Of a DNA stretch of 5,142 nucleotides, positions 58 through 399 are shown piece by piece. The notes below the pieces were generated by a model that ran no database searches, was not told where the DNA came from, and saw nothing but the letters and a program-made list of their open reading frames with translations. The first letter of the stretch is position 1. The number at the start of each line of letters is the position of its first letter. Made by a program: the position numbers and the translations under genes. This stretch comes from a virus (lineage: Duplodnaviria; Heunggongvirae; Uroviricota; Caudoviricetes): the IMG/VR virus record IMGVR_UViG_2671180669_000008; one strand, given 5' to 3'.

Positions 58-97
58 GACAGACCTGTGCTATCGGAAAGAAAAAAGGCCATCAGCA
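58..97. repeat. 40-bp perfect direct repeat, copy 1 (gacagacctgtgctatcggaaagaaaaaaggccatcagca)
   Basis: Identical base for base to 360-399. Flanks differ on both sides (57 vs 359, 98 vs 400). This copy sits inside the endolysin remnant. Confidence 0.9.
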
Positions 98-132
98 GCA
101 GCTGCAACAGCCTTGCGTAATGATGGCGACAT
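70..132 (-). pseudogene. Truncated endolysin remnant (N-terminal 20 codons of a phage-21 R / RrrD-like SAR endolysin)
   Basis: ATG at 132-130 overlaps the holin stop (TAATG). Translation is [20 protein letters not shown] then TAG at 72-70. The first 12 residues match the recalled N-terminus of phage 21 / DLP12 SAR endolysin (MPPSLRKAVAAA...); the frame diverges where repeat copy 58-97 starts. Confidence 0.45.
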
Positions 133-347
133 TATTCACCTCTCGCAGCCTTACGCTTGTCTTCTCTTATTTTGAAATACAGATTTGTCAGATAAGTCAG
201 AAGCCCCAGAAGCAGACTTCCCAGCACACCAATCGCAGCCCACTGTGATGGACTGACCTGATCCAACCACTGCAAAAACCAGTAGCCGGCACTGCCGGCG
301 GAGGTGCCGTAGGCAATGCCTGTTGATATTTTTTCCATCTGATACAT
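132..347 (-). CDS. Class II pinholin, phage 21 S21 / EssD-like (71 aa; alternative start Met4 at 338)
   Basis: Six-frame ORF 132..347. Protein [45 protein letters not shown]...[13 protein letters not shown] is near-identical to the recalled S21/EssD sequence. Met1 and Met4 give the dual-start motif. Stop TAA 134-132 overlaps the next ATG. Confidence 0.85.
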
Positions 348-359
348 ATCCCGCCCCCC

Positions 360-399
360 GACAGACCTGTGCTATCGGAAAGAAAAAAGGCCATCAGCA
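360..399. repeat. 40-bp perfect direct repeat, copy 2
   Basis: Identical to 58-97. Overlaps the T-tract and the 3' half of the terminator hairpin upstream of the holin. Confidence 0.9.

Follow-up and report, generated by a model that had tools for sequence, protein, structure and literature searches.

In the lysis cassettes of phage 21 (S21-R21-Rz) and DLP12 (essD-rrrD-rzpD), a P21-type holin gene (PF04971) with Met codons at positions 1 and 4 is followed by a gene for an RrrD-like endolysin. The same type of holin, with both Met codons and an RrrD-like reading frame next to it, was found in the window, i.e., the whole 5,142-nt stretch of DNA analyzed here. Unlike the phage 21 and DLP12 cassettes, the window keeps only 12 codons of the endolysin gene, without the lysozyme domain or Rz.

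Beside the endolysin remnant lies the end of ISEc20/ISSfl4, an element of the IS110 family. IS110 recombinases of the IS621 type are reportedly guided by a bridge RNA. ISEc20 resembles this type in having a DEDD-type IS110 transposase, site- and orientation-specific insertion, and two stem-loops at the left end; it differs in that no Rfam match was obtained and the guides are putative, and the 6 A residues (A6) adjoining the element in the window are off its own target pattern. ISEc20 is a resident IS of Shigella sonnei (PMC7373316), and copies of ISSfl4 drive deletions in Shigella; one example is the pINV pathogenicity island, whose loss between a pair of ISSfl4 copies is documented (Pilla et al. 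2017, PMC5629016). The IS-mediated rearrangements (PMC5629016) and IS-driven genome decay (Hawkey et al. 2020, PMC7373316) of Shigella involve the same IS family and host as the window, and the IS marks the edge at which genes are inactivated in both. However, those rearrangements are homologous recombinations of two IS copies, whereas the joint that cuts the endolysin gene in the window (J2, described below) lies 46 bp from the IS end and has 1 nt of homology.

Canonical insertions of ISEc20/ISSfl4 at 11 other loci share with the window the IS, its orientation, the base at which an adjoining 40-mer starts (GACAGACC), and the same late region (tRNA cluster, terminator, and P21-type holin). In these insertions a spacer of C4 to C6 follows the IS and the 40-mer runs on into the terminator (AAACTCTGATG...); in the window, by contrast, the spacer is A6, the 40-mer breaks off in the hairpin loop, where it meets rrrD codon 12, and a second, uninterrupted site follows. 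The parts are all known: a holin-rrrD pair of the P21/DLP12 type, a terminator, ISEc20/ISSfl4, and IS-driven decay of Shigella prophages. This particular arrangement was not on record in the collections searched.

A repeated 40-mer in the lysis region

The 40-mer GACAGACCTGTGCTATCGGAAAGAAAAAAGGCCATCAGCA was found at positions 58-97 (copy 1) and 360-399 (copy 2). The copies are identical at 40 of 40 positions, with a start-to-start spacing of 302 bp and 262 bp in between, and the sequences flanking them differ on both sides. The repeat is not a product of chance; none of 200 dinucleotide-preserving shuffles gave a match, with up to 3 mismatches allowed.

Megablast of the window against 5,426 complete Escherichia coli genomes detected close relatives of positions 58-700, in which the same tRNA cluster, terminator, and holin gene are followed by an intact lysozyme gene (rrrD or another) and a lysis protein gene. 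Exact-protein look-ups with the holin and with the ORF6N protein of the window returned complete chromosomes matching the window perfectly. Identity was 100% for positions 97-4347 with two of them (L006 and L009) and for positions 97-5142 with three (L063, L064, and L066), the last being S. sonnei 75/02 (CP019689) with intact rrrD and Rz; another record, CP022455 (L067), is the PacBio reference of a Shigella outbreak cluster. Downstream of the holin, the matching chromosomes encode a 165-aa RrrD (PF00959), an Rz-type lysis protein, an HNH protein, and terminase, and they contain a single 40-mer, at the terminator. Up to 14 places per genome carried this holin region (several lambdoid prophages in enterobacterial genomes).

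In every relative examined, copy 2 was present as one copy and in the same context, and no 40-mer was observed in any of them at the position equivalent to 58-97. Since the relatives carry one 40-mer only, at the terminator, copy 2 is, on this comparison, native and copy 1 is not. The only part of the window that is new with respect to the relatives is positions 1-96.

The holin gene (132-347, minus strand) is intact and encodes a P21-type class II holin of 71 aa with Met codons at 1 and 4, which matched PF04971 (E = 1.5e-35) over profile positions 1-63 of 64. An identical protein, WP_000284485.1, carries the annotation of class II holin. The gene lies directly upstream of rrrD, as it does in the relatives, and a pinholin role is predicted from domain and location.

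An intrinsic terminator hairpin lies upstream of the holin at 388-414 (read from 414 to 388 on the minus strand), with a 10-bp stem, a 7-nt loop, and a T-tract at 378-387; the tail reported by the terminator scan is TTTTTCTTTC. The RNA of this region folded at -30 kcal/mol (z = -4.8), and the GC-rich hairpin with a T-tract directly after it fits a Rho-independent terminator. Copy 2 consists of the 3' arm and T-tail of this terminator. Copy 1 has the same 3' arm and T-tract without the 5' arm, and its minimum free energy (MFE) fold had a z of only -1.8, not better than shuffles. In that fold, codons 2-4 of rrrD (GCCAUCA) pair with UGAUGGC of copy 1, and a hairpin is remade before the U-tract; this re-pairing of the orphan 3' arm is probably a coincidence (z = -1.8). 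Codons 2-4 of rrrD (119-127, minus strand) share the 7 nt GCCATCA with the 5' arm of the terminator (405-413, minus strand). This 7-nt direct repeat was considered as a crossover and rejected, the real joint being approximately 30 nt off.

The truncated rrrD (70-132, minus strand) is an open reading frame of 20 codons, 12 native and 8 repeat-derived, ending in TAG, and its start overlaps the holin stop (ATGA). The first 12 residues are those of the intact 165-aa RrrD in the closest relatives (L006 was used for the comparison), and the third base of codon 12 is window base 97, with which copy 1 begins on the minus strand. The intact RrrD of the relatives carries PF00959, whereas the stub keeps only the 12 native codons; the arrangement of R21/RrrD-type SAR endolysins, PF00959 after a signal-anchor-release segment, was not found in the stub.

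A preliminary description of this DNA had reported the 40-mer at both coordinates with different flanks, had taken copy 2 as the T-tract and 3' half of the terminator preceding the holin, and had placed the start of copy 1 in codon 12 of an endolysin frame that matches for 12 residues and stops after 20 codons. These points were borne out by the 40/40 identity, by the terminator scan and RNA fold, and by the comparison with RrrD, respectively.

The joint J2 (94-101), at which the end of copy 1 in the terminator loop meets the third base of rrrD codon 12, has a 1-nt overlap (base 97), and BLAST identity to the relatives with intact rrrD begins at this same base. On the phage strand, native rrrD reads ...GCT GTT GCA GCT GCT / ATT GGT GGT..., whereas the window reads ...GCA GCT GCT / GCTGATGGCCTTTTTT...; the native terminator reads ...CAGAGTTT / TGCTGATGGCC..., and the terminator-side breakpoint lies in the hairpin loop. 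Nothing at J2 resembles IS ends or their target. The joint is of the kind that a tandem duplication would leave, codon 12 of rrrD being joined to a terminator loop 302 bp upstream, and it is, judging from the bases on its two sides, of the illegitimate-recombination or template-switch type.

The gene for the Q antiterminator is located at 2979-2572 on the minus strand (PF06530). As far as visible here, Q-dependent late transcription on that strand would lead from downstream of Q through the tRNA cluster, the terminator, and the holin gene to the 20-codon rrrD stub, and transcripts passing the stub would reach the T-tract of copy 1 and then the IS in antisense. The tRNA cluster (1028-1338, minus strand) comprises four tandem tRNA genes, Gly-TCC, Thr-TGT, Arg-TCT, and one with anticodon CAT (annotated as Ile in relatives); it is located between the ORF6N gene and the holin terminator and is kept in all related prophages. 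Rfam matches at gathering level were obtained on the minus strand in 2129-2544, namely sRNA-Xcc1 (2129-2212), C4 antisense RNA (2346-2429), isrK (2455-2531), and c4 a1/b1 targets (2492-2544). This region, between Q and the ORF6N antirepressor-like gene, looks like a c4-ant immunity module of the P1/P7 type in a lambdoid late leader.

The ISEc20 end and its insertion site in the C-run

Positions 1-51 (plus strand) match many ISEc20 copies, as well as ISSfl4 on Shigella pINV plasmids, with 100% identity and represent the right end of ISEc20/ISSfl4; as in known copies, the end terminates in ...CTTAATAGGGGCAC. The element reads left to right and its body is outside the window. Positions 1-25 are the last codons and the stop codon of the transposase, the annotated coding sequence ending at the equivalent of window position 25. 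This DEDD-type transposase has 398 aa (PF01548 and PF02371), and only its last 8 codons are inside the window. Comparison of copies set the boundaries of the 1,450-bp element at GTTACTTT...AATAGGGGCAC, with the left end reading GTTACTTTATTCGTACCCC....

At the opposite edge, the terminal 74 nt (5069-5142) are an end of IS2 (IS3 family), and homology to related prophages stops at 5068. Bases 5050-5142 match IS2/IS3-family transposase loci thousands of times. The IS2 adjoins a DnaB-like replication gene, and the same IS2 occurs at the same spot in complete S. sonnei genomes, in which a transposase gene of IS2 type directly precedes the DnaB-like gene. With repeated IS copies at both sides, the window has the look of an IS-bounded contig. 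The description of the locus as an intact pinholin without an endolysin therefore applies to the window and does not extend to the genome: the window stops 51 nt into the IS, with IS2 opposite, and for this reason the lack of an endolysin in it says nothing on the genome.

Right ends of 45 other ISEc20 copies were collected from a scan of species-representative genomes, a scan of IMG/VR, and annotated records. The right flank was a C-run in 37 and GTTxx in the remaining 8, and the left flank ended in a C-run. The GTTAC-like class of right flank (8/45) resembles the first bases of the IS left end. In the window, the native C-run (354-359, within CCCGCCCCCC at 350-359), which separates the holin start from the terminator and is a recurrent ISEc20 site, is uninterrupted. 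At the 11 other loci, the right end of the IS (...GGGGCAC) is followed by C4 to C6, by GACAGACCTGTGCTATCGGAAAGAAAAAAGGCCATCAGCA, and then by AAACT..., always in the orientation seen in the window; the 40-mer at these canonical junctions starts GACAGACC.

Two groups were observed among these loci. Three (L029, L031, and L050) read ...ATATCCCGCCCC, IS, CCCC(C)(C)GACAGACC, and retain holin-rrrD-Rz to the left of the IS. The other eight (L018, L025, L036, L044, L045, L055, L072, and L073), including S. flexneri SFBU1023 (L018) and ECMA0423 (L025), have the same right-end junction with packaging and tail genes to the left of the IS. The genes observed there, in loci of S. flexneri type, were Packaging_FI, Phage_attach, Minor_tail_Z, and tail_U. 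The presence of tail genes on the left side of the IS indicates that the lysis and packaging genes are gone, i.e., that holin, lysin, Rz, terminase, and head genes have been deleted beside ISEc20 in the eight loci. The number of C residues at the phage site varies, from 5 to 7 in native sites to 4 plus 4-6 after insertion. In L031 the holin gene is also split by an insertion of approximately 1.3 kb (734-2066), besides the ISEc20 in the C-run.

As read from these junctions, the C-run was shown to be a recurrent, orientation-specific insertion site of ISEc20/ISSfl4 in prophages of Shigella and E. coli. Copy 1 in the window starts at the exact base that follows the C-run in canonical junctions. 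This coincidence of its start base with the canonical flank strongly supports the view that the IS came to lie next to copy 1 through canonical insertion into a copy of the site. The two 40-mers were also considered as a target-site duplication of the IS; this was rejected, as both copies are to the right of the IS end, and canonical ISEc20 copies gain only approximately 2-4 extra C at the site.

The joint between the IS end and copy 1 (J1) has a non-canonical spacer, AAAAAA (52-57), which replaces the C-run and is the only exception among 46 ISEc20 right ends. The heptamer AAAAAAG is identical to a stretch of the T-tract present at 81-87 and 383-389, and the A6 is conceivably a short templated patch from the T-tract. 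Correction of a quasi-palindrome was rejected as the source of A6, given that the local imperfect hairpin would template T's, not A's, on the plus strand. A plasmid copy of ISEc20 with the flank CCCCCAAAAAAGA (L015) was likewise rejected as donor, C5 being retained in it. No new promoter was found across the junction of IS and A6.

The joints were searched for in sequence collections. J1 (IS end, A6, and 40-mer) and the combination of A6 and 40-mer were each absent from complete E. coli genomes, IMG/VR, and JGI metagenomes; J2 (40-mer and rrrD) was absent from IMG/VR, JGI metagenomes, and the 5,426 complete E. coli genomes; and the junction of IS end and A6 was not found in PLSDB plasmids. A 17-mer of IS end plus AAAA matched one contig of a giant-virus MAG, which was dismissed as chance, the context being unrelated and AT-rich. 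No protein on record corresponded to the 73-aa plus-strand ORF spanning both joints.

The left end of ISEc20 (1128-1330 of L003) is a 226-nt non-coding region that folds as two long stem-loops. Within them, CUGCCCCC and GGGGGGG are similar to the C-run target, and UAAUAGGGG and GUAACGUG are similar to the right and left ends of the IS. Stem-loops with target-like and IS-end-like sequence are as expected of a bridge-type guide RNA, and the left end of ISEc20 is a candidate for such an RNA; no bridge-RNA family was matched in an Rfam scan of this end.

Origin of the rearrangement

The repeat itself has no function. On balance, it appears to be the scar of an IS-associated rearrangement, in a lambdoid prophage of S. 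sonnei type, by which the endolysin gene was cut off. The preliminary description had offered an illegitimate recombination or duplication as one reading; this reading gained support, as the relatives have a single 40-mer with intact rrrD and J2 shares 1 nt. What that description missed was that positions 1-51 are the right end of ISEc20/ISSfl4 and that the C-run is its insertion site.

The history that we favor, by a modest inclination over even chances, has two steps. We infer that the terminator/holin intergenic site was present twice and that its second copy received the IS or already carried it; an illegitimate recombination at the level of microhomology, or a template switch, at the hairpin loop would then have joined this second copy to rrrD codon 12. 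A 302-bp tandem duplication reaching from the terminator loop to rrrD codon 12, with its distal C-run occupied by the IS, may have produced the second copy; this copy could equally stem from a break at an IS present beforehand in the C-run, followed by error-prone repair. A local origin would predict a second holin gene and a complete rrrD-Rz just beyond the IS, and a local duplication would predict an IS left flank of ...CATCTGATACATATCCCGCC(CC) followed by the holin.

Because the returned S. sonnei records are without a second IS-bearing copy and copy 1 is identical to the local copy at 40 of 40 positions, the second site copy most likely arose locally, to judge by these comparisons. Several observations run against the favored history. 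The IS end is followed by A6 and not by the C-run expected of a canonical insertion; an exact duplicate of approximately 270 bp might have been expected to interrupt a short-read assembly, but the contig continues across it; and neither joint was present in any other sequence searched. A further weakness is that a single lineage would have had to undergo two or three changes in 300 bp, namely the duplication or joint, the insertion of the IS, and the conversion of the C-run to A6. Unless these were coupled, such a history is unparsimonious. The three main models differ in the DNA flanking the left end of the IS, which is outside the window.

An ectopic source was considered unlikely. The IS, spacer, and 40-mer would here have been contributed by a separate copy that already bore the IS, for example in a tandem lysogen or in a second related prophage or remnant, and a single illegitimate deletion, inversion, or integration would have brought its terminator loop and rrrD codon 12 together. 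Unrelated DNA would then be expected to the left of the IS, with the remaining rrrD lost or distant. One new joint would suffice, and a diverged source copy would make the odd spacer less surprising. IS-bearing remnants are indeed widespread, with IS, C5, 40-mer, terminator, and tRNAs on one side and tail genes opposite, as in the eight loci above, and the several lambdoid prophages per genome carry the holin region in up to 14 places. However, a look-up of a 98-aa ORF found IS-bearing remnants in other genomes only, and the returned S. sonnei records showed none in a second place. The remnants were in genomes of S. flexneri type, none of them carried A6, and copy 1 matches the local copy at all 40 positions.

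Still less probable, in our estimate, is that the three anomalies present in 100 bp, namely A6, the duplicated 40-bp flank, and the terminator-loop joint, all stem from one aberrant event at an IS110-family element of the bridge-RNA type. Two routes can be envisaged. In the first, 46 bp of flanking DNA would have been co-mobilized into a non-target site. In the second, a recombinase-induced break at the right-end core would have been repaired by multi-step template switching, in which AAAAAAG was taken from the T-tract 23 nt away, then the 40-mer was copied, and a jump from the hairpin loop to rrrD followed. If true, the one-event reading would provide an instance, found in nature, of guided IS110 recombinases yielding off-pathway products.

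Aberrant IS110 transposition taken by itself, as a full model of the locus, was judged very unlikely. An ISEc20 located canonically in the C-run would have been excised or copied as a unit with 46 bp of its right flank, and this unit inserted between rrrD codons 12 and 13; the original site would have been left or restored intact, the holin would be single-copy, and the IS left end would abut rrrD from codon 13 onward (...CCCCACCACCAAT, plus strand). The adjacency of IS, 40-mer, and rrrD would thus be accounted for by one event, the contig would be unbroken, as no holin is duplicated, and the non-canonical A6 hints at a junction not formed by normal recombination. On the other hand, the terminator loop and rrrD codons 12/13 are unlike the C-run and GTTAC flanks of the 45 other ends, and A6 is still without account. 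To our knowledge, co-mobilization of flanking DNA has not been described for elements of the IS110 family.

That the locus is an assembly or library artefact, a chimeric contig end from an IS-rich genome, is a reading to which we assign little credence. IS ends at both window edges are typical of a short-read contig, and both joints and A6 are unique among all collections searched. Against this, no more than 1-4 nt are common to the terminator loop and rrrD codon 12, so that no de Bruijn path could connect them unless reads crossed the joint; nor would a random chimera yield a 40-mer that starts at the exact base beside the canonical IS insertion. A cassette boundary had been among the readings offered earlier. 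We regard as scarcely credible that the 40-mers are functional recombination or cassette boundaries and the holin a mobile or invertible module: identical direct repeats do bracket a single small gene, but the relatives have the 40-mer once, copy 2 simply belongs to the terminator, the IS transposase is the only recombinase nearby, and both copies are on one side of the IS.

Meaning for prophage decay in Shigella

The proposal that the holin had been repurposed as a membrane-depolarizing protein found no support, the gene keeping its native context. A holin without a lysin is an unsafe conclusion from a contig ending inside an IS, and the ability of this prophage to lyse its host depends on the DNA beyond the IS. 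The A6 junction would be of interest to research on bridge-RNA-guided IS110 recombinases only if it proves genuine and linked to the IS; failing that, the locus is a case of ordinary prophage and genome decay. Its practical value is modest, and what the locus presents is the lysis cassette of an S. sonnei prophage being dismantled by an insertion sequence.
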